Positions 11,501-60,236 of a stretch of 64,000 nt of DNA are shown piece by piece; positions within the stretch are counted from its first letter, which is position 1; each line of letters starts with the position of its first letter. Position numbers and translations under genes: made by a program. Source of the DNA: Escherichia coli (GTDB lineage: Bacteria; Pseudomonadota; Gammaproteobacteria; Enterobacterales; Enterobacteriaceae); assembly GCF_003018255.1 (NCBI RefSeq), contig NZ_CP027440.1. One strand, 5' to 3'. The notes beneath the pieces are model-generated. The model had not been told where the DNA came from and did not search any database. It worked only from the letters and a program-made list of their open reading frames with translations.

Positions 11501-11542
11501 AAAATCCAACATAGCTAAAAATAATCAGGCGAGTGGTATGAC

Positions 11543-12453: not shown

Positions 12454-12479
12454 CGGTGTAGTTAATGGTGTAGTCAATT
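12454..12479. repeat. attL core of the satellite
   Basis: cggtgtagttaatggtgtagtcaatt identical to 26414-26439; imperfect similarity extends ~30 bp to the left on both copies. Confidence 0.8.
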
Positions 12480-13730
12480 GTGATGACCGGAATCAAAATT
12501 ATGAGCAGAGCACTTAACAAACTGAGTGACACACAGCTAAGGAAAATCAACGGCACACCCGCCCAAAAAACAGCCTTTCTTAATGACGGTGGAAACCTGA
12601 GCGTCAGGCATTCAACCAGCGGCCTTTTAACCTGGTATTTCACATACAGGGCCGGAACGGGAAGAGGGACACAACCTGAACGCGTTAAGCTGGGAAATTA
12701 TCCCGATCTGAGCCTGAAAGCAGCCAGGGAAAAAGCCGCACAGTGTCGCGCATGGCTGGCTGAGGGGAAAAATCCACGCTATGAACTGAATTACACCATG
12801 CAGGAAGCGTTAAAGCCTGCAACGGTTGGCGATGCGCTCACCTACTGGCTTGAGTCGTACGCAAAGGAAAAGCGCACAGATTACGAATCACTGAAAAGCC
12901 GGATCAATAAAAACATAATCATCAAAATTGGTGCTATGCCGCTGGATAAATGCGAGCTACGGCACTGGCTGGCCTGTTTTGATCAGGTGGCAAAGCGAAC
13001 ACCTGTTACTGCCGGATTCTTGCTACAGACATGCAAACAGGCGCTTAAATTCTGCCGTAGGCGGCGCTATGCAATCAGCAACGTTCTGGACGATCTGAAC
13101 GTGGCGGACGTTGGGAAAAAACCGGATATAAGCGAACGTGTCTTAAGCACCAAAGAACTGGGCGAGTTATTGCAGGCGCTGGATAAAAAAATATTTTCTC
13201 CTTACTACGTCGCGTTAATCCGCCTCCTGATTGTCTTCGGAGCCAGGACGGTAGAACTGAGGTTATCGGAGATCAGCGAGTGGGATTTTACCGAAATGCT
13301 ATGGACCGTTCCGAAGGAGCACAGCAAAACGAAGGTTGCAATATTCCGGCCCATACCGGAAGCGATCCTGCCGTTCGTCACGCGGCTGGTGGAGCAGAAC
13401 AGGCACACGGGCTTATTACTGGGGGAAGTGAAACAGGAGGCTAGCGTATCGCAGTACGGCAGATTAGCGCACAGGAGGCTAAAACACCTTCAATGGTCAT
13501 TGCATGACATCCGGCGCACCTTTACAACGATGCTGAATGATTTGGGCGTGGATCCTCACGTCGTGGAGCAGCTTACAGGTCATCAGATGCCAGGGATGCA
13601 ACGAGTCTATAACCACTCCCGTTATCTCGATGCGAAACGTGATGCGCTGGATATGTGGACGGAGCGGTTAGGGATACTGGCGGGAGCACATGAAAACGTA
13701 ACCACGCTACCAGTAACCAGAATAAAATAA
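12480..13730 (+). CDS. int: Tyrosine recombinase / integrase (P4-like)
   Basis: 416-aa ORF abutting attL; C-terminal catalytic region (HDIRRTF...RYLD) typical of phage integrases. Confidence 0.85.
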   Translation: MMTGIKIMSRALNKLSDTQLRKINGTPAQKTAFLNDGGNLSVRHSTSGLLTWYFTYRAGTGRGTQPERVKLGNYPDLSLKAAREKAAQCRAWLAEGKNPRYELNYTMQEALKPATVGDALTYWLESYAKEKRTDYESLKSRINKNIIIKIGAMPLDKCELRHWLACFDQVAKRTPVTAGFLLQTCKQALKFCRRRRYAISNVLDDLNVADVGKKPDISERVLSTKELGELLQALDKKIFSPYYVALIRLLIVFGARTVELRLSEISEWDFTEMLWTVPKEHSKTKVAIFRPIPEAILPFVTRLVEQNRHTGLLLGEVKQEASVSQYGRLAHRRLKHLQWSLHDIRRTFTTMLNDLGVDPHVVEQLTGHQMPGMQRVYNHSRYLDAKRDALDMWTERLGILAGAHENVTTLPVTRIK

Positions 13731-14094
13731 TTTTTTTCGTGTTTTTTCAGTATGCGCATACTGGATAAGTGCACAGATACAACGTGAAACAATGTGCAAC
13801 AACGTGACACAATCATGAACAAGAGGCCAAAAAGAATACAGATTTATAAGTTACTGATTTTTATTGCTCAACTGGTTTTTTATACATTAGCGAATTACGC
13901 GTTAAAGCGTGCGAAAAAAGGCATAAAACAAGATTTTATGCCTTTGTATTAACATGAATTTAAATGATTTTATCCTGATTATTCCTCTTTCTGTAAACCA
14001 TACGACATCAACATTTGCCATTCACCACACTAGCGGGAACAATACGACACAATAAGACACCTGATGACTCTTTAAGAAACGAAAGGGGGCAATA

Positions 14095-14283
14095 GTGTTA
14101 AGCACTGATCGGTTTATACGTGAAAAAGAATGCGAAAAGCTAACAGGCCTTAGCCGCTCATGCCGCTACCGCCTGGAAAAGGCCGGACAATTCCCATCAC
14201 GTCGTAAACTTGGCGGGCGTTCTGTTGGCTGGTCTTTATCTGAGGTTTTGGCCTGGAAGGATAGCTGCAAGGCAGTTCACTAA
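14095..14283 (+). CDS. alpA: AlpA-family transcriptional regulator / excisionase-like protein
   Basis: 62-aa ORF (GTG start) with AlpA-type HTH signature LTGLSRS..Y.L...G.FP...LG.RSVGW..SEV..W. Confidence 0.7.
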   Translation: MLSTDRFIREKECEKLTGLSRSCRYRLEKAGQFPSRRKLGGRSVGWSLSEVLAWKDSCKAVH

Positions 14284-14423
14284 AAAGACTGGCGGCACAC
14301 AGTCGCCACACATCCACTAATACAGAGATATAACTATGAAGATTGAATATGCGCCCGAACGTGGGCGGGGATTCGTTCGCCCTGGTGAAACTGAAAAACA
14401 ACAAAATTGGGGTTTTTCAGGCA

Positions 14424-14453
14424 TAAAAAAAGCGGCCCCGATATGGAGCCGCC
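14424..14453 (-). terminator. Putative intrinsic terminator for the leftward RHH transcript
   Basis: Minus-strand hairpin GCGGC-11 nt-GCCGC followed by U7. Confidence 0.4.
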
Positions 14454-14781
14454 TTTCTGAACAATTAACCTGCTGCGCCTTATGTGTATGTGATCCCAAA
14501 CATAAGCACGGGGATGATAGCCGCTATCAGGCTGGTGGGCAATTCCTGTTTTGTCCGTATTGCGCCGCCATTTTCGCTCGTTCAGAGCGCGAATATTTTT
14601 TTAGAAACTCATCAAGGACAAAAGCGCATGGTGCGAATCTTTCTGATTCATGCTCGAGCGCCATATTTTCGTGCTCTCTGTTCGTTTTTTGCGATGGTGT
14701 ATCGCTTGATTCTTTGTTGGTCATTGTGTGTACCTGTAAAGCAATGCGCCGTAGTACCTCACACCACGGCGCTGATAGTTT

Positions 14782-14913
14782 TTATCCTTTGGGGTCTATG
14801 CCGCGCCGCTTTAGTTCAGTGCGCCCCAACTCTTTAAGCCAGTTGGCTAGGCTTATGCCGTCGCTCTGTGCTTCTTTGTCGAATTGCTCTTTTAGCTCTG
14901 GAGAAATTCGCAT
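14782..14913 (-). CDS. Small ribbon-helix-helix (CopG/Arc-like) DNA-binding protein, candidate satellite repressor
   Basis: MRISPELKEQFDKEAQSDGISLANWLKELGRTEL... within ORF 14782-15054; transcribed divergently from the early operon; start codon uncertain, weak RBS. Confidence 0.4.
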   Translation of the reverse strand: MRISPELKEQFDKEAQSDGISLANWLKELGRTELKRRGIDPKG

Positions 14914-14966
14914 TCTGAATTGTGGGGATTGCCCGTCCCCTTTAGGGCTTTTATCGCGTTTGATTG

Positions 14967-15017
14967 TTGACAAGTGGCCACCTATTAAATTAGCCTTTCT
15001 ATTGTTAGGTGGCCACC
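14967..15017. promoter_or_regulatory. Candidate operator/promoter region: two GTGGCCAC palindromes flanking a TTGACA
   Basis: TTGACA at 14967-14972; palindromes GTGGCCAC (14974-14981) and GGTGGCCACC (15008-15017), 34 bp apart, between the divergent RHH gene and the rightward early genes. Confidence 0.45.
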
Positions 15018-15030
15018 TTAACACAAGAGC

Positions 15031-15077
15031 ACTTAAAAAAGCAAAGCCCCGCAAGTGCCATTACCACTCGCAGGGCT
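15031..15077 (-). terminator. Minus-strand intrinsic terminator; candidate 3' end of an antisense RNA
   Basis: On the minus-strand RNA a 13-bp stem (agcccugcgagug / cacuugcggggcu, two G-U pairs) with a 7-nt loop is followed by UUGCUUUUUU; on the plus strand the same stem has two C-A mismatches. Confidence 0.45.
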
Positions 15078-15106
15078 TCTAACCAACAACGTAAACGAGG
15101 AGCCGT

Positions 15107-15308
15107 TATGGTTGCCGTAAATCATATACCACACCTTGTACACACACAAACTGCCTTTGTGTGGCGTTTTCTGGCCCTGAGTGCCGGAGAATCTCAAATC
15201 ATCCACGTAACCGCCTGGACGGAACGCGAAGCGCGTAACCGTTGCCCGTCCGGTTGTGTTGCTGTATTTGCCGCCCGTATTCGTCAGGGGGAAACCTATG
15301 CACAATAA
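15107..15308 (+). CDS. Small hypothetical protein, possibly Icd-like
   Basis: MVAVNHIPHLVHTQTAFVWRFLALSAGESQIIHVTAWTEREARNRCPSGCVAVFAARIRQ; the Icd-like assignment is by recalled similarity only. Confidence 0.35.
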
Positions 15309-15528
15309 AACCACACCGGACGCAGCAGAAGAAGCAATGCAAATACTGATACGTGCGCTCGTTGATGTTACCCACATGGTGGAGATTATGGAGAGAAAAT
15401 CACAGTCGGAGCACGACAAAAGAAAACTTAAAACAATAAAAATAATTGCCAAAAACTCGCTGATAAAAGTTACAGACATCCTTAATGAGGACATTAAAAG
15501 AATAAGGGAGAAAATTTGTGATGCATAA
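15298..15528 (+). CDS. Hypothetical small protein (AT-rich cargo gene 1)
   Basis: 76 aa from ATG 15298 (MHNKTTPDAAEEAMQ...); overlaps the next gene by 11 bp; locally AT-rich. Confidence 0.35.
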   Translation: MHNKTTPDAAEEAMQILIRALVDVTHMVEIMERKSQSEHDKRKLKTIKIIAKNSLIKVTDILNEDIKRIREKICDA

Positions 15529-15748
15529 AATCCCTTTTGAAGTATTAATCCACTCTGAAAACGCATTAATTAAAGCACGCGAAATGAATGCGTTGTTAAT
15601 TAAATTAATTGAAGTGCCGGAAGGTGGTGAGGAATCAGGTGTATTAATGTTTGCAGCCATTCAGACATTACTATCGCCTGTTATTGATGAACTGGATAAG
15701 GCAATGGCAATTCACGAAAATAATAACGCGCCCCACACCGGAGAATAA
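15518..15748 (+). CDS. Hypothetical small protein (AT-rich cargo gene 2)
   Basis: 76 aa; start overlaps the previous ORF, suggesting translational coupling. Confidence 0.35.
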   Translation: MMHKIPFEVLIHSENALIKAREMNALLIKLIEVPEGGEESGVLMFAAIQTLLSPVIDELDKAMAIHENNNAPHTGE

Positions 15749-15753
15749 AAATA

Positions 15754-16053
15754 ATGAAACTTAAATATTCTGGCTTAACTGCCAGTGGCAAAACTCGCAC
15801 TAAATTCATGCGCGGTGATATTTACCGCGACCAGTACGGCGGCACGGTAATGATTAAGGGCGTGGAGGAACGGCGCGTAACTTACCGCCGTGAAGGTTAC
15901 GAATATGATTGCGTGATGCCCGTTTATCAGTTCGACCGTGATTTTTCTCTGGTGCAGGCAGCGCAACGCAGCAAGCCCACCAGCAGGGAGAAAGCACGCG
16001 CCAATATTCAGGAAATAAAAAAGATGCTTAACGTATTCAGGGGTAAAAAATGA
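15754..16053 (+). CDS. Hypothetical protein
   Basis: 99-aa ORF whose stop overlaps the primase start (ATGA). Confidence 0.4.
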   Translation: MKLKYSGLTASGKTRTKFMRGDIYRDQYGGTVMIKGVEERRVTYRREGYEYDCVMPVYQFDRDFSLVQAAQRSKPTSREKARANIQEIKKMLNVFRGKK

Positions 16054-17804
16054 AACTGGCACCGAACGTAAAACAGCAGTCACGCGGCATAAAACACAAA
16101 GAAACAGAAGTCATTATTTTTGCGGGTAGTGATGCCTGGTCACACGCAAAACAATGGCAGGAACATGACGCGCGTATGGCCGGAGATAATGAGCCTCCTG
16201 TGTGGCTTGGGGAGCAGCAGTTATCAGAACTGGATAAGCTGCAAATTGTGCCGGAAGGCAGAAAATCCGTGCGCATATTCAGGGCCGGATATCTTGCACC
16301 AGTAATGATAAAGGCGATTGGTCAAAAGCTGGCGGCGGCTGGTGTACAGGATGCAAATTTTTATCCTGAGGGTATGCACGGCAAGGAGGTGCAGAACTGG
16401 CGCGAATACCTGGCCCGTGAACGCCAGAATCTTTCTGATGGTCTGGTCATTGAGCTTCCGGTAAAGCAAAAGGCGCAACTTTCGCAGATGGCGGACAGTG
16501 AGCGCGCGCAGCTGCTTGCCGATCGCTTTGATGGCGTTTGCGTACATCCTGAAAGTGAAATTGTTCACGTATGGCGCGGCGGGGTATGGTGTCCGGTCAG
16601 CACAATGGAACTTAGCCGCGAAATGGTGGCGATCTATTCAGAGCACAGGGCCACTTTCAGCAAGCGCGTAATCAATAACGCCGTGGAAGCGTTAAAAGTT
16701 ATTGCCGAACCAATGGGCGAGCCGTCCGGCGATTTGCTGCCGTTCGCCAATGGTGCGCTTGACCTGAAAACGGGGGAATTTTCCCCGCACACGCCGGAGA
16801 ACTGGATCACCACGCACAACGGCATTGAGTACACGCCACCAGCACCAGGGGAGAATATCCGCGACAACGCGCCAAACTTTCATAAATGGCTTGAGCACGC
16901 AGCCGGAAAAGACCCGCGCAAGATGATGCGTATATGTGCCGCGCTGTACATGATTATGGCGAACCGGTACGACTGGCAGATGTTTATTGAGGCCACCGGA
17001 GACGGCGGGAGCGGTAAAAGTACATTCACACACATAGCCAGCCTTCTGGCAGGGAAACAGAACACGGTAAGCGCTGAAATGACATCGCTTGATGATGCTG
17101 GTGGACGTGCGCAGGTTGTCGGGAGTCGTCTTATCGTCCTGGCTGACCAGCCGAAATATACAGGCGAAGGAACGGGCATCAAGAAAATCACGGGCGGCGA
17201 CCCCGTGGAAATTAACCCGAAATATGAGAAGCGTTTTACGGCGGTAATCAGGGCGGTGGTGCTGGCTACCAACAATAACCCGATGATATTCACCGAACGG
17301 GCCGGAGGTGTGTCACGTCGTCGCGTAATTTTCCGTTTCGACAATATCGTCAGTGAGGCCGAAAAAGACAGGGAGCTACCGGAAAAGATTGCGGCTGAAA
17401 TCCCTGTCATTATCCGCCGATTGCTGGCGAACTTTACCGACCCTGAGAAGGCACGGGCTTTACTACTGGAACAGCGTGACGGTGATGAAGCTCTGGCAAT
17501 AAAGCAACAGACGGATCCGGTTATTGAGTTTTGCCAGTTCCTGAATTTTCTGGAGGAAGCACGCGGCCTGATGATGGGCGGCGGTGGCGATTCAGTGAAG
17601 TACACGACCAGGAACAGCCTTTACCGCGTCTATCTGGCGTTTATGGCATACGCAGGCAGGAGCAAACCGCTAAACGTGGCTGAGTTCAGCAAGGCCATGA
17701 AGCCAGCGGCGAAAGTTTACGGGCATGAATATATTACGCGAAAAGTTAAGGGAGTAACGCAGACCAACGCAATTACAACAGACGATTGCGACGCGTTTTT
17801 ATAA
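16050..17804 (+). CDS. Replication protein: P4-family primase / D5-like SF3 helicase
   Basis: 584 aa with Walker A GDGGSGKST; domain architecture of satellite pri-rep proteins; iterons immediately downstream. Confidence 0.8.
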   Translation: MKLAPNVKQQSRGIKHKETEVIIFAGSDAWSHAKQWQEHDARMAGDNEPPVWLGEQQLSELDKLQIVPEGRKSVRIFRAGYLAPVMIKAIGQKLAAAGVQDANFYPEGMHGKEVQNWREYLARERQNLSDGLVIELPVKQKAQLSQMADSERAQLLADRFDGVCVHPESEIVHVWRGGVWCPVSTMELSREMVAIYSEHRATFSKRVINNAVEALKVIAEPMGEPSGDLLPFANGALDLKTGEFSPHTPENWITTHNGIEYTPPAPGENIRDNAPNFHKWLEHAAGKDPRKMMRICAALYMIMANRYDWQMFIEATGDGGSGKSTFTHIASLLAGKQNTVSAEMTSLDDAGGRAQVVGSRLIVLADQPKYTGEGTGIKKITGGDPVEINPKYEKRFTAVIRAVVLATNNNPMIFTERAGGVSRRRVIFRFDNIVSEAEKDRELPEKIAAEIPVIIRRLLANFTDPEKARALLLEQRDGDEALAIKQQTDPVIEFCQFLNFLEEARGLMMGGGGDSVKYTTRNSLYRVYLAFMAYAGRSKPLNVAEFSKAMKPAAKVYGHEYITRKVKGVTQTNAITTDDCDAFL

Positions 17805-17817
17805 TTTTTTGTAAAAG

Positions 17818-18044
17818 CCCTCTACCCCATCTACCTGAATGAAGTAAACGCATATTATTCAACATGATAAGTGGGTAGAGGGCTAGGTAGAAGGCTAATA
17901 AAAGCTCTCTACCCCTTCTACCTGATTTTATCAGTTTCAGGTAGCAGGGTAGACGGCAGGTAGAGGAGCCCAAAAAGCTATCTACCCGCTGAAAGCCGCG
18001 CCATTACTGACATGATGAGCATTCGGGTAGATGGGTAGAGGGGG
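17818..18044. repeat. Iteron-type replication origin
   Basis: At least 8 copies in both orientations of GGTAGA(G/T)GG / CC(C/T)CTACC with AT-rich spacers, directly after the primase-helicase gene. Confidence 0.6.
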
Positions 18045-18089
18045 GGGAGGCACAACTAAAAACTTTTTAAACGAGGGGGGGGAAAATAA

Positions 18090-18404
18090 ATGCGCATACA
18101 TCAAAATCACTTAACAAATATGCCAGCCGAAAACATGAATCAGGGGCGACAAATGACCAAAATTCGCAGAGACAGAACACAGGCAAAATATAAAGCGTTA
18201 GACATGACAGAGCTTTCCTTAAAGGTGGCAATCAAAGCGATAGACCACCACACACGGGCAGGATACGCGAAGGAACATCCCGACCTGATAAGCGCATTCA
18301 TGACCACGGCGGCGGCAAACTTTGCCACGTTGACAGAACGTGAGATTGCCGAAGCGGAACAGGTAACAACCATCAACGTTAAAACCGGAGAGGTGGAATC
18401 ATGA
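18090..18404 (+). CDS. Hypothetical protein
   Basis: 104-aa ORF; stop overlaps the ssb start (ATGA). Confidence 0.35.
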   Translation: MRIHQNHLTNMPAENMNQGRQMTKIRRDRTQAKYKALDMTELSLKVAIKAIDHHTRAGYAKEHPDLISAFMTTAAANFATLTEREIAEAEQVTTINVKTGEVES

Positions 18405-18811
18405 CAGCACAGATAGCCGCTTACGGGCGGCTGGTGGACGACCCGCAGGTAAAACAGACCAGCAAGGGCACACCGATGACGCTGGTTCGTATGGCGGTAT
18501 CGCTGCCATGCAGCCAGGCACATGACGGACAGGCGACGTTATGGTTATCGGTTATCGCATTTGGCAAACAGGCCGATTTCCTGGCTAAACATCAAAAAGG
18601 CGATGTTGCCAGCGTATCCGGCACGATGCAGGTAAGCCAGTGGACCGGACAGAACGGGGAAACGCGGCGGGGGTATCAGGTTATTGCAGACAGCGTAATC
18701 AGTGCCCGCGCGGCACGTCCAGGCGGGAACAGACGCAAAACCACAGGCACACAGGGTAATCAGCCACCAGCGGGAGGCGATGACCCTTACGGTGACGGTA
18801 TTCCGTTCTGA
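18401..18811 (+). CDS. ssb: Single-stranded DNA-binding protein
   Basis: 136 aa; Gly/Pro-rich linker and acidic C-terminal tail DDPYGDGIPF resembling the SSB D-I-P-F tip. Confidence 0.6.
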   Translation: MTAQIAAYGRLVDDPQVKQTSKGTPMTLVRMAVSLPCSQAHDGQATLWLSVIAFGKQADFLAKHQKGDVASVSGTMQVSQWTGQNGETRRGYQVIADSVISARAARPGGNRRKTTGTQGNQPPAGGDDPYGDGIPF

Positions 18812-18821
18812 GGGGGTGACG

Positions 18822-19070
18822 ATGGTACATGACCGCATAGCGGAGGAACTCGAGGCAAAAGGCTTTTACCGGAGGGCGTCGGCGCGATGGGGTGAAGTCA
18901 TGCAACTGGTGGAGACAGACAAGGAACGGCATCAGGTTACGATGCGACGGCTGGAATGTTCCAGGAAGGCACAGAGGCCACCGGAGCCGCCAACGGAGAA
19001 CTACGCAGACCTGAGAAATGCAGTAAATCGCACTTACGCAGACATGGGGCTGAGCAAATTAGCAGAGTAG
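18822..19070 (+). CDS. PerC-family transcriptional regulator (putative)
   Basis: MVHDRIAEELEAKGFYRRASARWGEVM... matches the PerC-type AEELE.KG.WRRA..RW motif; start chosen at ATG 18822. Confidence 0.45.
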   Translation: MVHDRIAEELEAKGFYRRASARWGEVMQLVETDKERHQVTMRRLECSRKAQRPPEPPTENYADLRNAVNRTYADMGLSKLAE

Positions 19071-19092
19071 GAATATCAGAACCACACCACGC

Positions 19093-19125
19093 AGCCGGAG
19101 CAATCCGGCTTTTTGTTATTTTTTG
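19093..19125 (+). terminator. Intrinsic terminator after the PerC-like gene
   Basis: Hairpin agccgga-gcaa-tccggct followed by TTTTTGTTATTTTTT. Confidence 0.55.
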
Positions 19126-19336
19126 TAAATTATTTGTTCGTGGTTGTTCCACGTTGTTCACTGAGCGGATCGGCATATTTTACCCGAACTGAATCATGAT
19201 TATTCTCGCCCGTGGTGCCAGGACGCTGGGGCCACTTTCCCGCCTGTTAATGTGCTCGCCAATATTCATTACCAGGCGGGAAAACGATCGGTGCGATTGC
19301 TGATTTCCTTATGAAAAACGGTTGAGTGTTTGCCGC

Positions 19337-19374
19337 GTCCTGGAGTTCCTTACTTAACCCCAGGACTTTTTTTT
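19337..19374 (+). promoter_or_regulatory. Hairpin plus T8 tract abutting the capsid start codon
   Basis: 7-bp stem gtcctgg/ccaggac (16-nt loop) followed by eight T that run directly into ATG 19375; no SD sequence. Confidence 0.4.
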
Positions 19375-20532
19375 ATGCCGAGAATAATCGAATTACGCCA
19401 GCAGAAAACCGCCATTAAAAATCAGATGCGCGACATGCTGGAGAACGCTGAAAAAGAAAACCGCAGTCTTAACGATGCTGAGGGCGCAAAATTTGACGAA
19501 TTACGCGCTAAAGCTGAATCCCTCGATAAAGACATTTCCCGCCTTGAAGCCATTGCAGACGAAGAGCGCAGCAAGCCAGGTAAAAGCAGCCAGACCACTG
19601 ACCCCGCAGAACTACGCAGCTACATTCTGACAGGTGAAACCCGCGCATTAAGTACAGGCGTTCCCGCTGATGGTGGTTATACCGTTATCCCCGAACTGAA
19701 CACCGAAATCATGCGAATGCTGGCGGATGAATCCACCATGCGCCGCATCTGTACCGTGAAAAAAATCAGCAGCAACGAGTTTAAGCAGCTTGTTTCCGCT
19801 GGCGGTGCGACCGTTAACCACGGTGAAGAGGGTAAGGCACGCGAACAGACCAGCACCCCGCAGATTAACGAGGTGAGCATTAAGCTGTATCCGGTCTATG
19901 CGTACCCGCGCACCACACAGGAAATCGTGGATTTTTCCGATGTGGACATCCTTTCATGGCTGACGGGTGAGATTGGCGACACCTTCACGGAAACCGAAGA
20001 AAGCGATCTGGTTGTGGGCGACGGTGACAAAAAAGCAAAAGGTTTTTTATCCGTACCCCGTGCAGAGAAGAACGACAAAGAGCGTGATTTTGGTACGTTG
20101 CAGGTAATTAAACCTTCCGAATCTCTGGCGTGGACATCTGCGGACCCGCTGATCGACCTGAAATTTGCATTACGTAAAAAATACCGCAAAAACGCGGTCT
20201 GGGTGGTTAACTCCACGACGGCGGCAAAACTCCAGAAGGTGAAGAACGCGAACGGTGATTACATCTGGCGTGACCGTTTACAGGCGGGTGATCCTGATAC
20301 GTTGCTGGGCCTTCCGGTCGAATATCTGGAGTTTATGCCTGATAACGTTATTGCCCTGGGTGACTTCAAACGCGGTTACTACATTGTTGATCACGAAACA
20401 GGTGTTCGCACCAGACCGGACAACCTCACAGAGCCGGGCTTCATCAAAATTTTCACGCAGAAATATTTAGGCGGTGGCGTGGTGGATTCGAACGCGATCA
20501 AGATTCTGGAACTGCCACAGGACGACGATTAA
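19375..20532 (+). CDS. Major capsid protein (HK97 fold) with N-terminal coiled-coil scaffold-like region
   Basis: ORF 19330-20532 (TTG) trimmed to ATG 19375 (MPRIIELRQQKTAIKNQ...). Confidence 0.8.
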   Translation: MPRIIELRQQKTAIKNQMRDMLENAEKENRSLNDAEGAKFDELRAKAESLDKDISRLEAIADEERSKPGKSSQTTDPAELRSYILTGETRALSTGVPADGGYTVIPELNTEIMRMLADESTMRRICTVKKISSNEFKQLVSAGGATVNHGEEGKAREQTSTPQINEVSIKLYPVYAYPRTTQEIVDFSDVDILSWLTGEIGDTFTETEESDLVVGDGDKKAKGFLSVPRAEKNDKERDFGTLQVIKPSESLAWTSADPLIDLKFALRKKYRKNAVWVVNSTTAAKLQKVKNANGDYIWRDRLQAGDPDTLLGLPVEYLEFMPDNVIALGDFKRGYYIVDHETGVRTRPDNLTEPGFIKIFTQKYLGGGVVDSNAIKILELPQDDD

Positions 20533-20543
20533 CAGCATACAGA

Positions 20544-20571
20544 AGGGGCTTAAAAGCCCCTTTAGTGTTTT
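20544..20571 (+). terminator. Putative terminator between capsid and protease genes
   Basis: Hairpin aggggctt-aa-aagcccct followed by TTAGTGTTTT. Confidence 0.45.
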
Positions 20572-21144
20572 ATGGGTGAAAAAATTATGAAGAGTATGGA
20601 AATCCGGTCATCGGAAATCACCACCAGCGGAGCCGGTACGCTGACGGGCTACGTTGTTCGCTGGGATAAGCTTTCAGAACTGTTATGGGGTGAGTTTTAC
20701 GAAAAATTCCAGCGGGGGGCGTTTACTGAATGGCTTGCGGCGGGTAATGACGTTCGCGGCCTGTATGAGCATGACCACAGCATGTTACTGGGGCGCACCC
20801 GTTCCGGCACGCTGAAACTGGAAGAGGACGAAACAGGGTTACGCTTTGAACTGACCCCACCGGATACCAGTACAGGGCGCGACGTTATCGAACTGGTTAA
20901 GCGTGGGGACATCTCGGGGATGAGCTTTGGCTTTCGCTCCCGTAAGGATGTATGGGATACCACAACAGATCCATGCGTGCGCACCGTGCTGGTGGCGGAA
21001 CTGTACGAAATTACCGTTACATCGGTACCGGCTTACCCCGATTCCGGCGTGGAGCTGGCCCGCCGTTCCCTGTATGAGCAGCACCCCGAAAAAATGCCGC
21101 GTGCGGATAATCGCCGCTGGTGGGTGGATTTAGCGGGGGTGTGA
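20572..21144 (+). CDS. Prohead maturation protease (HK97 family)
   Basis: 190-aa ORF following the capsid gene; length and position fit a prohead protease. Confidence 0.75.
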   Translation: MGEKIMKSMEIRSSEITTSGAGTLTGYVVRWDKLSELLWGEFYEKFQRGAFTEWLAAGNDVRGLYEHDHSMLLGRTRSGTLKLEEDETGLRFELTPPDTSTGRDVIELVKRGDISGMSFGFRSRKDVWDTTTDPCVRTVLVAELYEITVTSVPAYPDSGVELARRSLYEQHPEKMPRADNRRWWVDLAGV

Positions 21145-21145
21145 T

Positions 21146-22357
21146 ATGTGGCCTTTCAGAAGAAAAAAAGAGCAGCGCAGCATGACGCTTGATAAGTTTA
21201 TGGCGCTGGCTGGCACATCGAACACGGGGGCGGGTGAGTACGTATCATCGGGGACAGCGGAATCACTGCCCGCCGTCATGAACGCCGTGACGGTCATCTC
21301 TGAGGCGGTGGCTACCATGCCGTGTTACCTGTACCTGGTACGCAATGAGAAGGGGAAGGAGGCCCGCGAGTGGCTTGATTCTCATCCGGTCGATCACATC
21401 CTCAACGAGCGCCCGAACGCGTGGCAGACTCCCTACCAGTTTAAGCGAATGATGATCCGCCACTGCCTGTTAAACGGTAATGCTTATGCGGTGATTCAGT
21501 GGGGGCGTGATGGTTTTCCGGTGGCTTTACATCCTTACCCGCCGCAGTCGGTGAACGTGGAGCAGACAGGTGATCATAACTGGCGCTACTGCATCACTGA
21601 CGCCTACACCGGAAACACCCGCAACTATTTACCGTGGGAGGTTCTCCACCTTCGTTACTCCACGGATGACGGTTTTATGGGGCGCTCACCTGTAACCATC
21701 TGCCGCGAATCGCTGGGGCTTGGGCTGGCCCAACAACGCCACGGCGCGAGCGTGATGCGTGATGGCATGATGGCGGCAGGGGTTATCACGTCAGGCGAAT
21801 GGCTGGACGGCGTGAAGGGCAAACAGGCATTAGCCGCACTGGAACGCTACAAAGGGGCCAGAAACGCCGGAAAAACGCCCATCCTTGAAGGGGGGATGAG
21901 CTATCAGCAGCTGGGCATGAGTAATCAGGATGCCGAATGGCTGGCCTCCCGTCGCTTCACCATTGAAGACATCGCCCGAATGTTCAACGTCTCGCCGATT
22001 TTTTTGCAGGAATACAGCAACAGCACCTACAGCAACTTCAGCGAGGCAAGCCGCGCATTTCTCACCATGACGATGCGCCCGTGGCTGGCGAACTTTGAGC
22101 AGCAGATAAAAAACGCCCTGCTGGTGGCCTCGCCTGTACCTGGTATCCGGTATCAGGTGGAGTTTGACAGCGCGGACCTGTTACGGGCCACACCTGGCGA
22201 ACGCTTTGCCACCTATGAACGCGGCATCAAATCCGGCGTTATGTGCCCGAACGAAGCCCGCGAACGTGAAGGGCTGTCCCCGCGTGATGGTGGTGATGAG
22301 TTCAGCCAGGCATGGAAACAGGAAGTAAAAATCAGCGAGGGAGAAAAACCGGAATGA
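21146..22357 (+). CDS. Portal protein
   Basis: 403-aa ORF in the head module; portal-like by length and position. Confidence 0.8.
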   Translation: MWPFRRKKEQRSMTLDKFMALAGTSNTGAGEYVSSGTAESLPAVMNAVTVISEAVATMPCYLYLVRNEKGKEAREWLDSHPVDHILNERPNAWQTPYQFKRMMIRHCLLNGNAYAVIQWGRDGFPVALHPYPPQSVNVEQTGDHNWRYCITDAYTGNTRNYLPWEVLHLRYSTDDGFMGRSPVTICRESLGLGLAQQRHGASVMRDGMMAAGVITSGEWLDGVKGKQALAALERYKGARNAGKTPILEGGMSYQQLGMSNQDAEWLASRRFTIEDIARMFNVSPIFLQEYSNSTYSNFSEASRAFLTMTMRPWLANFEQQIKNALLVASPVPGIRYQVEFDSADLLRATPGERFATYERGIKSGVMCPNEAREREGLSPRDGGDEFSQAWKQEVKISEGEKPE

Positions 22358-22692
22358 ACATAGGGCGACTGCGTGACAGGATAACGATTCAGACCCTGAA
22401 ACAGACCAGGGATATAACCGGCGAAATACTCGAAACGTGGGAGGACGGTCACACACTCTGGGCAAGCGTGAACATGGTCAGCAGCAAGGAGGCCATTTCA
22501 TCGGGCGCAGAGCTGGCGATTGGTACCGTAAGGATCTGGATACGGTACCGGAAGGACATCAACGCCACCTGCCGGATAAAGGTCAGTACGGGGCCGCTGG
22601 CGGGGCGTGTACTGAATATCATCGGGCAGCCGCTGCCGGATGCCGCCAGGACACGCCTTGAAATTCTTTGTCGTGAGGGCGCGGAAAAATGA
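22354..22692 (+). CDS. Head-tail adaptor / head closure protein
   Basis: ATG 22354 overlaps the portal stop (ATGA); MNIGRLRDRITIQ... Confidence 0.55.
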   Translation: MNIGRLRDRITIQTLKQTRDITGEILETWEDGHTLWASVNMVSSKEAISSGAELAIGTVRIWIRYRKDINATCRIKVSTGPLAGRVLNIIGQPLPDAARTRLEILCREGAEK

Positions 22693-22985
22693 CAGAAGAA
22701 CTTATCACCCTGGAAGAAGTGAAACTCCATTGCCGCATCGATGGCGACGATGAAGACCAGTTAATCAGCGGATACATTGCCGCATCGCTTGAGGCGTGCC
22801 AGATACACATAGGCAGGCGCTTTGATGACGGGCTGGAGTTCACGCCAGCCATAAAGATTGGCTGCATGATGTTTATCGCTCACCTGTATGAAAATCGCCA
22901 GATTGTCGCGGATAACGCAAAAACACGCGTACCCATGACGATAGGCGCACTCTGGACGGCTTACCGTGATGTGGGGGTGTACTGA
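22689..22985 (+). CDS. Head-tail connector (gp6-like)
   Basis: 98 aa; overlapping stop/start with neighbours on both sides. Confidence 0.55.
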   Translation: MTEELITLEEVKLHCRIDGDDEDQLISGYIAASLEACQIHIGRRFDDGLEFTPAIKIGCMMFIAHLYENRQIVADNAKTRVPMTIGALWTAYRDVGVY

Positions 22986-23425
22986 TGCCGTGGCAACCAT
23001 TAAGACGATGCACAGAACCAGGCTGTAACAGGCGCGTTAAATCCGGCAAGTGTGAGGAGCACAGGCGGGCGGCATGGCGTGCAGAGGATGCCAGACGAGG
23101 ACACCGCCGCGCGCGTGGATATTCCAGACAGTGGGACAAATACCGCGCCATGTATCTGAGTAAAAACCCGTTATGCGTGCGATGCCTTGAGAAGGGGATA
23201 TATACGCCCGCCGTGGTGGTGGATCACATTATCCCGATTAATGGCGGTGATGATGTTCTCTTCTGGCCCGAATGGAACCATCAACCATTGTGCCAGGCGT
23301 GTCATAACCAGAAAACGAAATGGCTTGATCCGGCAACAAAAAGCAAGCGTGCCGCAGGTGGATTTCGTGAAGAGGAAGAACGGGCTGCTAACCGCAATAA
23401 CTGGATGTATGACGCTGATGAATGA
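22985..23425 (+). CDS. HNH endonuclease (packaging-associated)
   Basis: Cys-rich zinc-finger and HNH motifs (CVRCLEKG...VDHIIPINGG...CQACHNQKT); sits upstream of terS/terL as in cos-packaging HK97-like systems. Confidence 0.8.
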   Translation: MPWQPLRRCTEPGCNRRVKSGKCEEHRRAAWRAEDARRGHRRARGYSRQWDKYRAMYLSKNPLCVRCLEKGIYTPAVVVDHIIPINGGDDVLFWPEWNHQPLCQACHNQKTKWLDPATKSKRAAGGFREEEERAANRNNWMYDADE

Positions 23426-23591
23426 GCGGGAACAAAACCGCCTTATCCGTGGACTTATAAGGCAGCGTGACGCATGGAAGACACAGGAAACAGGGCATAA
23501 AGATAAAGCGTCAGGACGCGCAGAACGCATCACAGCGAAGCGATTAACCGACCGTGACCGCGAGGTTATGGAATGTTTCCGCAATCGCTGA
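23420..23591 (+). CDS. Hypothetical small protein
   Basis: 57-aa reading frame MNEREQNRLIRGLIRQRDAWK... between HNH and terS; may not be expressed. Confidence 0.25.
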
Positions 23592-23713
23592 TGAGGCTGT
23601 ATGACGGGGTGGGGGGCGTTTTCAGGACAAACCCGACCCCGCCGGGCACCGAACGCCTCCTCAAATTTTTATGCACGGGAATTTTTTGAAAAATAATCTG
23701 GCGAAAAATAAGC

Positions 23714-24070
23714 ATGGCAAGACCACCGAAAGCCCCCGCCTACCTGGATGATATCGCCGTGAAGCAGTGGCGGGAAAAATCTAGGCAGCTTGCGGAACGG
23801 GGAGACCTGACCCCCGCCGACTGGAGCAATCTGGAACTGTATTGTGTCAACTACTCCATTTACCGGAAAGCCGTTGCAGACCTTGCGGCGCGCGGGTTCA
23901 GCATTGTTAACAGTCAGGGCGGCGAGAGCAGAAACCCCGCATTAAGCGCAAAATCCGACGCTGAAAGAGTGATGATAAAAATGGCCTCTTTGCTCGGTTT
24001 TGACCCGATAAGCCGCCGTAAAAATCCACCGGAAACAGAAGAAGAGGACGAGCTTGACCGCCTGGAATAA
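23714..24070 (+). CDS. terS: Terminase small subunit (P27 family)
   Basis: 118 aa, MARPPKAPAYLDDIAVKQWRE...; overlaps the terL start. Confidence 0.75.
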   Translation: MARPPKAPAYLDDIAVKQWREKSRQLAERGDLTPADWSNLELYCVNYSIYRKAVADLAARGFSIVNSQGGESRNPALSAKSDAERVMIKMASLLGFDPISRRKNPPETEEEDELDRLE

Positions 24071-25715
24071 GTACGCAGAAGACGTAAAAACGGGCAAAAT
24101 TCCGGCCTGTAAACGGCTGAAACAGGCCGTTAAACGGTACTTTTCGGACCTTGAAAGCCCCCTTTACACGTTCGATCGTGAGGTTGTGGAGCGGTTTATT
24201 GCCTTTTCCAGGGTGTGCCCGCACGTAAAAGGGCCGATGCGTGGCAGACCCATTGAGCTGGAGCCGTGGCAGCAGTTCGCCTTTGCGTGCATCCTCGGCT
24301 TTAAGGTTAAGGCCACCGGACGGCGCAAATACACGAGCGCCTTTATCGAAGTGCCGCGCAAAAATGCGAAATCCACGACCGCCGCGATTCTGGCTAACTG
24401 GTTTCTGATTATGGAGAACGGGCAGCAGGATATTTACACCGCAGCGGTGAGCCGTGACCAGGCGCGGATCGTTTTTGATGATGCGCGTCAGATGTGCCTT
24501 TTATCCCGACCGTTACGCAGGCGGGTGAATATTCAGGCCCACAAGGTGATGCACCCGAAAAGCAACAGCCTGTTAAAGCCGCTGGCAGCAAAAGCGGCAA
24601 CCATCGAGGGAACAAACCCCAGCCTTTCCATCGTGGACGAATACCACCTACACCCCGATAACGGCGTTTATTCCGCGCTTGAGCTGGGGATGGGCGCACG
24701 TCCCGAAGGGCTGTTATTTGCCATTACCACATCGGGCAGTAACGTCGTTTCAACCTGTAAACAGCACTATGATTATTGCTGCCAGATCCTGGACGGCGAA
24801 GAGGTCAACGATTCAATTTTTGTGCTGATTTACGAGCTGGACGACGAAAACGAGGTTGATGATCCGGCGATGTGGATAAAGGCTAACCCTAACATCGATG
24901 TTTCCGTGGATCGTGAAAAACTGGCCTCAACCATCCAGAAAGCGCGGGGTATTCCGTCGCAATGGGTGGAGATGATGACAAAGCGATTTAATATCTGGTG
25001 CCAGGGGGCTACCCCGTGGATGGGTAACGGCGCATGGGCTGAGTGTGCCGGAACGTTCACGGAGGAAGATTTACACGGGCAGGAGTGTTACGCGGGGCTG
25101 GACTTATCATCAACCAGCGATATTTCCAGCGTGTGCTATGCCTTTCCGGTCGGTAAAAATATCATGCTGGTTTCCCGTCATTATCTGCCGGAGTTCCAGC
25201 TACAGAACCCCGCCAATAAAAACCGCGCTGTCTATCGCCAGTGGGCTAAAGCGGGCTGGATACGCACAACGCCAGGTGACTGCATTGATTACGACCGGAT
25301 CAGAGATGACATCATGCAGGATGCGGAGAAATTTAATATCAGGCTGGTGGGCTTTGATACGTGGAACGCCACGCATCTCAGGACGCAATTACAGGGGGCT
25401 GGTTTTGAGGTGGAGCCGTTCCCGCAAACCTACCTCAGATTCAGTCCGGCGGCGAAATCGTTCGAAGTTTTTGTTAACCGCAGGGTGATTGTGCATCGTG
25501 GCGATCCGGTGTTGTCCTGGTCGATGAGTAACGTCGTGATGCAGAGTGACGCGAACGCCAATATCAAGCCGAACAAGAAAAAATCACCGAACAAGATAGA
25601 CCCGAGCGTAGCGGCGCTGATGGCGTTTGGTACATTCCAGGCAGAGCATGAGGATTTTGCTTTTGATATAAGCGACAGCCACCGCCAGAAACTGGAAGAA
25701 TTTAGCGGGGTGTAA
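24054..25715 (+). CDS. terL: Terminase large subunit
   Basis: 553 aa with ATPase and nuclease regions; final large gene before attR. Confidence 0.85.
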   Translation: MTAWNKYAEDVKTGKIPACKRLKQAVKRYFSDLESPLYTFDREVVERFIAFSRVCPHVKGPMRGRPIELEPWQQFAFACILGFKVKATGRRKYTSAFIEVPRKNAKSTTAAILANWFLIMENGQQDIYTAAVSRDQARIVFDDARQMCLLSRPLRRRVNIQAHKVMHPKSNSLLKPLAAKAATIEGTNPSLSIVDEYHLHPDNGVYSALELGMGARPEGLLFAITTSGSNVVSTCKQHYDYCCQILDGEEVNDSIFVLIYELDDENEVDDPAMWIKANPNIDVSVDREKLASTIQKARGIPSQWVEMMTKRFNIWCQGATPWMGNGAWAECAGTFTEEDLHGQECYAGLDLSSTSDISSVCYAFPVGKNIMLVSRHYLPEFQLQNPANKNRAVYRQWAKAGWIRTTPGDCIDYDRIRDDIMQDAEKFNIRLVGFDTWNATHLRTQLQGAGFEVEPFPQTYLRFSPAAKSFEVFVNRRVIVHRGDPVLSWSMSNVVMQSDANANIKPNKKKSPNKIDPSVAALMAFGTFQAEHEDFAFDISDSHRQKLEEFSGV

Positions 25716-25728
25716 TGAGGTCAGCAGC

Positions 25729-26010
25729 ATGACAGAAGCCGAAATACTGCGATTAATCCGCCGCGTCTCTGGAATCAGCCAGCAGGCTGACGAACAGACC
25801 ACGCAGCCGGACAGCGTGACAGCCGAAAATTATGCGCGTGTTGTTGCTGAGGTGATGCGCCGTGATGGTATCCAGCTTAATGATGCGGATATGCGCGACA
25901 TACGGATCCGCGTTCTTGAAATGCTGGCCTACAATCGCCGTGTAGAGATGTACAGGGAGAAAGAGAAAATTACGTACAACTGGAAGAAGCCGGAGCGGTT
26001 ACGGCGGTAA
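25729..26010 (+). CDS. Hypothetical protein
   Basis: 93-aa ORF after terL. Confidence 0.4.
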   Translation: MTEAEILRLIRRVSGISQQADEQTTQPDSVTAENYARVVAEVMRRDGIQLNDADMRDIRIRVLEMLAYNRRVEMYREKEKITYNWKKPERLRR

Positions 26011-26012
26011 CG

Positions 26013-26082
26013 TGTTGATTTAAAGGCGGCTCAATTTTGAGCCTCGTAACTGGTTGATATTTCCGGCAACCTCAATTTGAGG
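26013..26082. repeat. Two tandem GTTGAT...CTCAATTTGAG palindrome units; candidate cos/packaging or operator site
   Basis: Unit 1 gtgttgatttaaaggcggctcaattttgagcc and unit 2 ggttgatatttccggcaacctcaatttgagg, ~40-bp period, in the 400-bp non-coding right end of the satellite. Confidence 0.4.
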
Positions 26083-26413
26083 AGAGCGGAAACATCATCC
26101 CTCACATTCTGAATGGTCATAATGACCACGCAGGCCATCGAGGCAACCATAGCGATCATCGTTACGGTTGGAGCTTTCCGCCATTGGTGGAAAAGGTGCA
26201 CATCTGGATCATCATTACGGTGATCAAGGGTATGTAAAACCCACCAGCCTGATTAAAGGTTAACCGGAAAAAAAATCCGGTAGCCCCGTTATGGGGATCC
26301 CCATATCGACATTAACGCCCCTCATGAATTGGTGCGCTTCCCCCTGGAAAGATTACCCGCCTGTATATTTCTTGTGTCTATTTGTTCCACGTTGTTTCAT
26401 ACAGTGCACCGAA

Positions 26414-26439
26414 CGGTGTAGTTAATGGTGTAGTCAATT
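26414..26439. repeat. attR core of the satellite
   Basis: Identical 26-mer to 12454-12479. Confidence 0.8.
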
Positions 26440-26531
26440 TGCGATTTTTGGCACTTTTTGTAGTGCGGGTTATTTAATTAAATCAATGTGTTATTGAAAA
26501 TAAGTTATAGATATATCCCATTTATAACTCC

Positions 26532-27767
26532 TTATTTCTGCCAGGCAAGTTGATAAAGCATGAGTGCCAACGTTTTGACCCCTTCGGCAAGGTCGGTAAT
26601 ATTGGTGCGTTCCGCCGGGTTATGGCTGATCCCGTTGATGCTGGGAATGAAAATCATGCAGGTCGGCACGCGAGGCGCGAAAATTTGCGCGTCGTGCCCG
26701 GCACCACTGTGCATTACCCGGTAGTTCTGTTTTTCACTTTCACACAATTCTGTCAGGGTGGCGACCAGCTCCTTATTCATCGGCACGGGTTCTTCGTCCA
26801 TCCATAAATCGATATCAATACCAATGTCCATTTCATCGCAAATCGCCCGCATGTCGTTTTCTAACTGCTGGGTGAAATCGCGCAGCACGGCAGCGTCGGT
26901 ATGACGACAATCAATGGTGAACGTGGTTTTACCCGGTACCACATTCACCGTATTCGGACGCGGCTCCACCTTGCCAAAGGTAAGCACCAGCGGGTCGCCC
27001 ATCTTTTTCGCTTTTTCGATCGACTGATGGCAAATGCGACTGAAAGCGTAAACCGTATCACGACGATAACCCATCGGCGTGGTGCCTGCATGGTTTGATT
27101 CGCCGTTCAGCGTCACCGTATAACGACGCTGCCCGACAATTGCATTCACCACGCCAATTGACTGCCCATTACTTTCCAGCACACAGCCCTGTTCGATATG
27201 CAGTTCGACAAAGGCTTTAATATCCTGACGCGGAGTTAGTGGGGCGTTCGGCAGAGTAAATCCGCAAGCCTTCATCGCATCGACAAAACTATTTCCTTTG
27301 GCATCACAGATATTCCGCACGTCGTCAGGATTCGCCAGCCCAAAGATATTTTTACTGCCCCAGAAGACATACGGGAAGCGGCTGCCTTCTTCTTCTGCCA
27401 TCGCCACCACTTCGACCGTACGTAACGGCGCGCCGTATTGCGTTTTCAGCCAGTCAATTGCCAGCCACGCCGCCAGCGCACCGAATTGCCCGTCGAGGTT
27501 ACCGCCGTTAACCACGGTATCGATATGCGAACCGCTCAGAACCACTTCCTGTGGATATTCGGTGCCACTCAGGCGACCGTATAAATTCCCCACTTCATCG
27601 AAACGTGTTTCCAGCCCGCTTGCTGCCATTCTTTTTTTAAACTGCTGCTGAGTTTCCAGCCATTCCGGCGAATAAAGTAAACGGGTCATCCCACCCGCTG
27701 GGTCAGCGCCAAAAGAGGAAAGCCAGGGCAGCGTTTCTTCTATGGCTTGACGGAAATGTGTAATCAT
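26532..27767 (-). CDS. allC: Allantoate amidohydrolase
   Basis: ORF 26532-27785 trimmed to the second ATG (MITHFRQAIEETLPWL); M20 peptidase family. Confidence 0.9.
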   Translation of the reverse strand: MITHFRQAIEETLPWLSSFGADPAGGMTRLLYSPEWLETQQQFKKRMAASGLETRFDEVGNLYGRLSGTEYPQEVVLSGSHIDTVVNGGNLDGQFGALAAWLAIDWLKTQYGAPLRTVEVVAMAEEEGSRFPYVFWGSKNIFGLANPDDVRNICDAKGNSFVDAMKACGFTLPNAPLTPRQDIKAFVELHIEQGCVLESNGQSIGVVNAIVGQRRYTVTLNGESNHAGTTPMGYRRDTVYAFSRICHQSIEKAKKMGDPLVLTFGKVEPRPNTVNVVPGKTTFTIDCRHTDAAVLRDFTQQLENDMRAICDEMDIGIDIDLWMDEEPVPMNKELVATLTELCESEKQNYRVMHSGAGHDAQIFAPRVPTCMIFIPSINGISHNPAERTNITDLAEGVKTLALMLYQLAWQK

Positions 27768-27788
27768 AAGAAAGTCCTGTCTCAATAA

Positions 27789-28838
27789 TTATTGCGCAAA
27801 GGGATTTTTCGTTTCGTATGACGTGTTATAAAGCGCGTCGGAAATTAAATACTGGTAAATATCATCAACAATTTCGATGCCTTCGACGGCGGCTTTGCGT
27901 TGTTTAATATCCTGATCCTGTCCGGGATAATAAACCTGATTAAAACCGGGCGCGGGGGTAATGGCATTTAATTCGCGCATGGTCTGGCTAAGATGTTGAC
28001 GGAATAATTCGCTGGAGGAGAAAAAGTTCGGATTAATAACGATATGTAATTGCCCCAAATTACGCCCGGCGTGTAAATCGTCATACATCGAACTAACCTG
28101 TCGCCCGAACGGTAAGCCGAGTAAGACGCCTGAGAGGACGTCAATCATCATCATCAGGCCATACCCTTTCGGTCCGGCGGCAGGGAGCAGGGCGTTAACT
28201 GCAAATGGATCGGTTGTTGGTGCTCCGTTTTTATCGACCGCCCAGGTATCCGGGATAGACATATTACGCGAGCGGGCGTCGAGCACTTTTCCCCATGCCT
28301 GTACGGTAGTCGCCATATCAAAGGTAAGGATCTCGTCGCCTTCTCCCGGCGCGGCAAAGGTCAGTGGGTTAGTACCGTAGTAAATTTCCGCGCCGCCAAA
28401 CGGCACCACCATTGGATCGGACTGGCACATCGAAATGCCAATTAACCCGGCGCGAGCTGCCTGCTGCACAAAATAAGAGATTGCGCCGCTGTGACCCATC
28501 CGGCTGATACCGACCACCGCAACGCCATTTTGCTGGGCGGTTTTGATGGCATGTTCCATACCCATTTTCGCCGCGACCTGTCCGGCGGCATTGTCGGCAT
28601 GTAAAATTGCCGAGCACGGCCCGGTTTCCTCAAGACGAAACTCCGGTTCGCGGTTGGTGCCGCCTTTTGAAATGCGTTCCGCGTAGTATTCCACGCGCAC
28701 CGCGCCATGAGAGTGGATCCCTCTGGCATCGGCGTAAACCAATACTTCAGCCACGGTTGCAGCGTGCTCACGTTTTAACCCAGCCTGGCAGAGTTTATTC
28801 TCAATTAGCTGGTGGAGTGTTTCCCGACTGATTTTCAT
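27789..28838 (-). CDS. allD: Ureidoglycolate dehydrogenase
   Basis: 349-aa Ldh2-family ORF; synteny. Confidence 0.9.
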   Translation of the reverse strand: MKISRETLHQLIENKLCQAGLKREHAATVAEVLVYADARGIHSHGAVRVEYYAERISKGGTNREPEFRLEETGPCSAILHADNAAGQVAAKMGMEHAIKTAQQNGVAVVGISRMGHSGAISYFVQQAARAGLIGISMCQSDPMVVPFGGAEIYYGTNPLTFAAPGEGDEILTFDMATTVQAWGKVLDARSRNMSIPDTWAVDKNGAPTTDPFAVNALLPAAGPKGYGLMMMIDVLSGVLLGLPFGRQVSSMYDDLHAGRNLGQLHIVINPNFFSSSELFRQHLSQTMRELNAITPAPGFNQVYYPGQDQDIKQRKAAVEGIEIVDDIYQYLISDALYNTSYETKNPFAQ

Positions 28839-59728: not shown

Positions 59729-59747
59729 GTGTTATCCCTCGTTTATG

Positions 59748-60209: not shown

Positions 60210-60236
60210 AAAATACTCCCTGATAATCTGAATGAA

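Follow-up and report, generated by a model that had tools for sequence, protein, structure and literature searches.

The 64,000-nucleotide stretch of Escherichia coli DNA analyzed here (contig NZ_CP027440.1 of assembly GCF_003018255.1; hereafter the window) almost certainly carries, at positions 12333-26503, an intact capsid-forming phage-inducible chromosomal island (cf-PICI) of the EcCIEDL933 type, whose packaging operon at 19375-25715 follows the order of its family with no local rearrangement. The open reading frame (ORF) listing places eight packaging genes in this interval, all on the + strand, in the order capsid, protease, portal, Hc1 (head closure), Ad1 (head-tail adaptor), HNH, TerS and TerL. 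An earlier note on this DNA had singled out this order, with the coordinates and the single strand that the listing bore out, as a departure from the usual TerS-TerL-portal-protease-capsid order of HK97-like phages, and had hinted at a satellite of the cf-PICI type. This capsid-first, terminase-last arrangement has been described before, as the conserved organization of Proteobacterial cf-PICIs: EcCIEDL933 was called genetically unusual in organization, and its run from capsid to connectors followed by hnh-terS-terL is conserved in these elements and distinct from that of helper phages (bioRxiv 10.1101/2022.09.08.507074).

Searches with PHROGs profiles assigned all eight proteins, and NCBIfam equivalogs concurred for six of the genes (major_cap_HK97, proheadase_HK97, portal_HK97, gp16_SPP1, put_DNA_pack and sm_term_P27); in the NCBIfam search of the module proteins, HNH and TerL had no equivalog match. 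These hidden Markov model (HMM) searches upheld the earlier assignments, including that of portal versus capsid. That the order reflects misassigned genes (portal and capsid swapped, for example) or a misassembled window is vanishingly unlikely. Only the earlier note's own caveat speaks for such an error, whereas the two independent HMM libraries gave unambiguous full-length matches, two copies at 96-97% identity carry identical gene names in identical order in RefSeq, and matching DNA is present in 1713 of 5426 complete E. coli genomes (at least 80% of the island is covered in 236 of these).

The packaging module is very close to that of the prototype. EcCIEDL933 (CP-933C) was located on the EDL933 chromosome at NZ_CP008957.1 1680329-1694760, where the RefSeq annotation gives the same gene order. 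The two modules are 97.3% identical in DNA over 6.6 kb, which supports the hint of a cf-PICI-type satellite, and every packaging protein is equal in length and 95.5-100% identical (capsid 99.2%, protease 97.4%, portal 99.0%, Hc1 95.5%, Ad1 99.0%, HNH 99.3%, TerS 100% and TerL 98.2%). AlpA and Int are 98% and 92% identical, respectively, and gene order is identical from the PerC-like gene through the last ORF. The elements differ in the region from alpA to the replication gene, which encodes a 584-aa primase here and a 710-aa DUF927 protein in EDL933 (24039-26171 of locus L099), with only 163 aa alignable. They also differ in size (14.2 kb here, 15.4 kb for EcCIEDL933) and in integration site, which is the start of allE here and lies between roxA and phoQ for EcCIEDL933. 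Read from the two sequences, a swapped replication module beside a 97%-identical packaging module indicates modular exchange between satellites.

A decayed HK97-like prophage, stripped of its tail and lysis genes, locally rearranged and now a cryptic remnant without a function of its own, would explain why the proteins belong to HK97 families and why homologues bear the historical annotation as cryptic prophage CP-933C. This origin is nevertheless extremely unlikely: none of the genes is truncated and their lengths agree with those of the functional prototype, the backbone is of the PICI type (int-alpA-primase), the eight-gene order and the size of about 14 kb recur in Enterobacterales, Pasteurellales and Orbales, and deletion alone cannot turn the canonical order into a capsid-first one. 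Moreover, EcCIEDL933 has been mobilized experimentally, and each of its packaging genes is required, since single mutations abolish transfer (bioRxiv 10.1101/2022.09.08.507074).

Assignment of the island as an intact cf-PICI was examined further through the gene order of its relatives. One genome per species was surveyed, which gave 78 loci (Enterobacterales, Pasteurellales, Orbales and others) with phmmer-based gene annotation; the locus scan, queried with an alignment of four capsid sequences, returned mostly close relatives, and the zone of 33-42% capsid identity was sampled through nine exact-protein look-ups and a phage collection. The reversed portal-protease-capsid triplet described by the earlier note recurred as capsid>protease>portal in 68 of the 69 loci holding all three genes. 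TerL followed the capsid gene in 57 of 58 loci, and Hc1 preceded Ad1 in all 52 loci where the pair could be placed, opposite to phages. The full eight-gene order was found at 50 of 78 loci, with a further seven missing only the divergent first connector gene in detection, and the span from int to TerL had a median of 14.1 kb (9.4-15.2 kb, n=27). The recurrence of both the eight-gene order and the triplet shows that the order is not due to chance. The sole triplet exception, in Acinetobacter tandoii (41% identity, with a match confined to the C-terminus), is a canonical prophage (HNH-TerS-TerL-portal-protease-capsid). Capsid identity is at least 56% within the clade and at most 42% outside it; at the 50% cluster level, identity falls to at most 40% after a capsid cluster at 63%.

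More distant relatives are of several kinds. Two small int/primase islands carry capsid-protease-portal, one with HNH and TerS but without TerL (P0126) and the other with Ad1 preceding Hc1 (P0128), and a fragment (P0132) has TerL, one ORF and then capsid-protease-portal. Three PICI-like islands hold only a capsid homologue (P0134 and P0239) or TerS and capsid (P0194), and two loci (P0131 and P0138) are true tailed prophages that keep the canonical order. Small int islands in JGI metagenomes (L005 and L006) and in Aliiglaciecola sp. (L086), with capsid identities of 40-42%, have capsid-protease-portal-(HNH)-TerS; neither TerL nor connector genes were detected in these three, which may be partial capsid-forming satellites that borrow the TerL of a helper. 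An 11.6 kb Logan contig (SRR28502134) is a capsid-first variant with a primase, capsid-protease-portal, Ad1 before Hc1 as in phages, and TerS-TerL. In two further Logan contigs (L009 and L010; SRR17165151 and SRR17165149), a TerL homologue lies directly upstream of a 155-aa ORF that is followed by capsid-protease-portal.

The order would say nothing about satellite status if it were common in ordinary tailed HK97-like phages. We consider this very unlikely. L009 lends it some weight, as its capsid (38% identity) falls outside the cf-PICI clade in a neighbor-joining tree without bootstrap, used descriptively, and the capsid-protease-portal triplet may have arisen more than once; L009 is, however, a 6.6 kb fragment with no visible tail genes. 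The earlier note had proposed a check of whether ordinary HK97-like prophages commonly share the order. No capsid-first order was found among the tail-encoding genomes examined, a sample that is small relative to phage diversity, and every genuine tailed phage in it has the canonical order. These comprise five annotated or called phages and prophages (L013/L014, L092, L093, YeP1 and VW-6S) and the 14 phage records common to the capsid and portal searches (YeP1-3, SfII, SfIV, VIT_AJPSC, Kp488x and 689R6 among them). In the phage collection, capsid, TerL and portal matches of 58-82% were confined to satellite-sized or composite records, all capsid-first: vB_KppS-Ant (16.5 kb), Pmp7/Pmp8, a Salmonella fragment and the end of P12620-1. 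TerL identity is 68-82% in the satellite-sized records versus at most 36% in phages, portal identity 62-81% versus at most 35%, and the capsids of real phages in the collection reach at most 40%.

Two of these records are unusual in themselves. The terminal 90.9-106.5 kb of the 106.5 kb record PQ569648.1 ('Klebsiella phage P12620-1') is cf-PICI-like, with TerS-TerL-int ... capsid-protease-portal, which suggests that the record is a composite assembly. The annotation of the 765-aa gene that follows terL in vB_KppS-Ant (LR881103.1) as a tape measure protein is questionable, given that the element measures 16.5 kb.

The content of the island agrees with published descriptions of cf-PICIs, which are elements of 10-18 kb with a capsid-first module order, no lytic genes and no tail module (bioRxiv 10.1101/2025.02.11.637232). 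The cfPICI model of SatelliteFinder has 11 core components and forbids tails and holins, and the program reports cf-PICIs in about 13% of Enterobacteriaceae genomes (PMC10085698). All 11 components are present in the island (the eight packaging genes plus int, alpA and primase), which makes it Type A. Its size of 14.2 kb, the int/AlpA/primase set, the eight packaging genes and their order, the lack of tail and lysis genes and the relatedness to EcCIEDL933 all place it among the cf-PICIs, and it has neither the canonical order nor the tail genes and lysis cassette of an ordinary HK97-like temperate prophage. No scanned island ORF matched a tail, holin or endolysin family in the profile scans. 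About 3.3 kb is without assigned function (13730-16050, 17804-18401 and 26010-26503), but each of these stretches is at most 2.3 kb and thus too short for a tail module.

Induction by a helper, T=4 capsids, self-packaging and the use of helper tails have been shown experimentally for EcCIEDL933 (bioRxiv 10.1101/2022.09.08.507074; bioRxiv 10.1101/2025.02.11.637232), and T=4 is the geometry of the cf-PICI capsid (bioRxiv 10.1101/2025.02.11.637232). By its near-identity to EcCIEDL933, we infer the same helper induction, small T=4 capsids, self-packaging and helper-tail use for the present copy, and a life cycle is proposed whose steps are taken from the published work on a protein set that is 95.5-100% identical. 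On induction of a helper prophage, the island would excise through Int and AlpA and replicate with its primase. Its capsid, protease and portal proteins would build small T=4 capsids of the HK97 fold, into which HNH, TerS and TerL would package island DNA at the island's own cos. The two connector proteins would then close the head and dock tails stolen from the helper phage.

By profile, the first gene of the connector pair is of the head-closure type and the second is of the portal-binding adaptor type. The cf-PICI papers call the Hc1 gene 'adaptor' and the Ad1 gene 'connector'; the labels 'adaptor, connector' in the earlier note follow this usage and differ from the PHROG names. In SPP1-type connectors, the gp16-like protein faces the tail. 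Hc1 varies more than any other gene of the module, with a median identity of 40% among relatives versus 55-76% for the other genes, which fits the report by He et al. that the 'adaptor' is more divergent and that the adaptor and connector proteins together determine tail specificity (bioRxiv 10.1101/2025.02.11.637232).

The gap between HNH and terS is probably the cos site, judging from its conservation. An alignment of 59 distinct sequences revealed blocks, GGGTGGGGG ... ACCG.CCCCCTCCT.AATTTTTA.GCACGG.A.TTTTTT.AAAATA, that are kept across genera whose proteins share only 55-76% identity; the block upstream of terS is strongly conserved in Escherichia, Proteus, Xenorhabdus, Photorhabdus and others. 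In the linear record of vB_KppS-Ant, an induced element, the first base lies 22 nt upstream of terS and the last falls within the conserved block, which is consistent with a cos in the HNH-terS gap and nothing more. With cos at this position, virion DNA would carry terS-terL at its start and the head genes and HNH at its end, as in HNH-dependent HK97-like phages.

The boundaries of the island were set by comparison with E. coli K-12. The K-12 allE/allC sequence matches window 11471-12332 on one side and 26504-27874 on the other, and the two alignments overlap by 22 nt, so the island lies between target duplications of about 22 nt, and the chromosome is broken exactly at the start of allE (11543-12328, - strand). 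At the left junction, the K-12 allE start codon (CAT on the + strand) here reads CTT, and allE loses its ATG. The allD-allC genes, which lie upstream of allE in the same orientation, are now 14 kb away from it; allantoin catabolism may be affected by this insertion. The terminase genes had been described as adjoining attR at the right end of the island: they do lie at that end, but one 93-aa ORF and about 500 nt separate TerL from attR. A pair of 75-nt direct repeats (12405-12479 and 26365-26439) was considered as att sites and rejected, because the K-12 comparison places both inside the island. The left part of the island also encodes small regulators and a DUF4222 protein. Feature coordinates are collected in Table 1.

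Table 1. Features of the island, in window coordinates, with the matches or comparisons on which each assignment is based.
Feature	Position	Strand	Basis
attL core, left copy of the ~22-nt duplication, at allE start	12311-12332	.	comparison with K-12
15-mer copies near both island ends	12422-12436 and 26382-26396		
Tyrosine integrase	12501-13730	+	phrog_1 E=7e-73
15-mer TTGTTcCACGTTGTT, three tandem copies with 10-nt spacing, between int and alpA	13778-13812	-	
AlpA-type excisionase/transcriptional regulator	14095-14283	+	phrog_2790 E=1.7e-17
Primase/replicase, 584 aa	16050-17804	+	phrog_864 DNA primase E=7e-175
Single-stranded DNA-binding protein	18401-18811	+	phrog_44 E=3e-38
PerC-family transcriptional activator-like protein	18822-19070	+	phrog_994/phrog_10396; RefSeq name in relatives
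Terminator-like hairpin between the PerC-like gene and the packaging operon	19093-19110	+	
15-mer TTGTTCCACGTTGTT, exact copy, 231 nt upstream of the capsid ATG	19144-19158	+	
Major capsid protein, HK97 fold, 385 aa, first gene of the operon	19375-20532	+	phrog_10 E=5.5e-88; TIGR01554 289.8 bits
GC-rich hairpin, 9 bp, T-rich tail, just past the capsid gene and before protease; candidate attenuator/RNA stabilizer	20542-20563	+	
Prohead protease, HK97 family (S78), 190 aa	20572-21144	+	phrog_80 E=1.9e-67; TIGR01543
Portal, 403 aa	21146-22357	+	phrog_12 E=1.2e-116; TIGR01537
Head closure Hc1 (SPP1 gp16-like), 112 aa	22354-22692	+	phrog_25 E=6.6e-35; TIGR01563
Head-tail adaptor Ad1 (HK97 gp6 / SPP1 gp15-like), 98 aa	22689-22985	+	phrog_40 E=8.4e-36; TIGR01560
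HNH endonuclease, packaging accessory, 146 aa	22985-23425	+	phrog_144 E=8.1e-45
Conserved 60-aa ORF, no assigned role	23409-23591	+	phrog_3173 E=7.5e-37; EcCIEDL933 copy 100% identical
Non-coding gap, 122 nt, probable cos	23592-23713	+	alignment of 59 distinct sequences
TerS, P27 family, 118 aa	23714-24070	+	phrog_83 E=2.6e-39; TIGR01558
TerL, 553 aa	24054-25715	+	phrog_9 E=5.9e-179
93-aa ORF, no assigned role, last gene of the island	25729-26010	+	phrog_1561 E=9.5e-55
attR core, right copy of the duplication, adjoining the allC stop codon	26504-26525	.	comparison with K-12

A scan of 18000-26600 gave no sigma-70 promoter on the + strand, although such a scan is uninformative for activator-dependent promoters. 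Six matches to a 15-mer motif were found in the window, every one of them within the island, against a chance expectation of 0.15. Its layout, including the distance of 231 nt to the capsid gene, is the same in EcCIEDL933, where the copies occupy the same positions, and in strain OkiPb01677. The motif is a candidate binding site for a regulator or recombinase, which could be AlpA, Int or the PerC-like protein, and the copy nearest the capsid gene is a candidate activator site of the packaging operon. The operon would then have its own activator-dependent promoter downstream of the terminator-like hairpin that follows the PerC-like gene.

The hairpin after the capsid gene recurs widely. With RNAfold, about 90% of 72 distinct relatives showed a hairpin of the GGGGC/GCCCC type, and a strict detector found it in 41 of the 72 versus none of 1440 shuffles; the stem is largely conserved in sequence, so covariation support is weak and is not claimed. 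Such a hairpin could keep capsid mRNA more abundant than the mRNA of the low-copy proteins encoded downstream. A tentative and rather doubtful extension of these observations is that the gene order is itself a working design, with the capsid gene placed first behind an activator-dependent promoter. The hairpin would keep capsid well in excess of portal, connectors and terminase, cos would cut the operon between HNH and terS, and the tail-facing head-closure gene, placed ahead of the adaptor gene, would serve as a fast-evolving determinant of specificity. This account is absent from the cf-PICI papers of Alqurainy et al. and He et al.; if it is true, gene order matters for satellite fitness.

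Nothing contradicts the assignment of the island as a cf-PICI. Some points limit parts of the interpretation. The replication gene and the integration site differ from those of EcCIEDL933, and function of this copy is predicted from the prototype. The vB_KppS-Ant record is without about 80 nt of the conserved block, and its ends may therefore not be true cos ends. Lastly, all five canonical phages checked also carry a hairpin after the capsid gene, so this feature does not mark out the capsid-first order.

Finding this gene order is of little consequence in itself, since it is the hallmark of a known family in a copy close to its prototype. What the analysis does provide is a corrected annotation, as a satellite and not a defective prophage, and the record of a new combination in which the EcCIEDL933 packaging module is joined to a different replication module. 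The post-capsid hairpin, the cos-like block, the repeated 15-mer, the variability of Hc1 and the allE insertion are mildly new; the first three of these and the swapped connector pair offer leads for cf-PICI expression and packaging.

Elsewhere in the window, a tRNA-Arg(tct) at 40825-40901 is followed (41900-62200) by an omptin protease gene and nfrA/nfrB homologues; no large prophage-type ORFs were seen beside this tRNA within the window. An ISAs1 transposase of low G+C lies at 50746-51882, and an Rhs/YD-repeat PAAR protein with VgrG at 55589-62138.

Among known satellites, the classical Gram-negative PICIs EcCICFT073 and EcCIED1a share the int-alpA-replication left half of the island (bioRxiv 10.1101/2022.09.08.507074; PMC10085698), but they are without portal, connectors and TerL and use helper capsids. 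SatelliteFinder forbids portal, adaptor and connector for a PICI (PMC10085698), and the presence of portal, Hc1 and Ad1 here sets the island apart from that class. The two groups of Firmicutes cf-PICIs have the same gene content and life style, but their operons open with portal-protease-capsid in one group and with HNH-TerS-TerL in the other, and they form separate capsid and TerL clades (bioRxiv 10.1101/2022.09.08.507074).

With the HNH-dependent cos HK97-like temperate phages (HK97 and the helper HK106, with YeP1, VW-6S and the prophages L013, L092 and L093 as the examples compared), the island has in common a P27-type TerS, TerL, an HK97 portal, an S78 protease and an HK97 capsid, as well as the gp6-like adaptor, the gp16-like head closure protein, an HNH gene directly upstream of terS and the post-capsid hairpin. 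These phages run HNH-TerS-TerL-portal-protease-capsid-Ad1-Hc1 and then the tail genes. In the island, by contrast, the head genes precede HNH, the triplet and the connector pair are both reversed, and tail and lysis genes are lacking. Drawn as a circle, the satellite reads HNH-TerS-TerL-[int, regulation, replication]-capsid-protease-portal-Hc1-Ad1, and the terminase genes appear 'last' only because attP lies shortly beyond terL. As all of the genes are co-directional, no single inversion, rotation or deletion converts the phage order into the satellite order, and we infer that at least four transposition-type steps would be required. In published trees of capsid and TerL, cf-PICIs form three clades of their own, apart from phages (bioRxiv 10.1101/2022.09.08.507074). 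Reordering in several steps, together with the deep separation from phage homologues, fits an old and separate satellite lineage.

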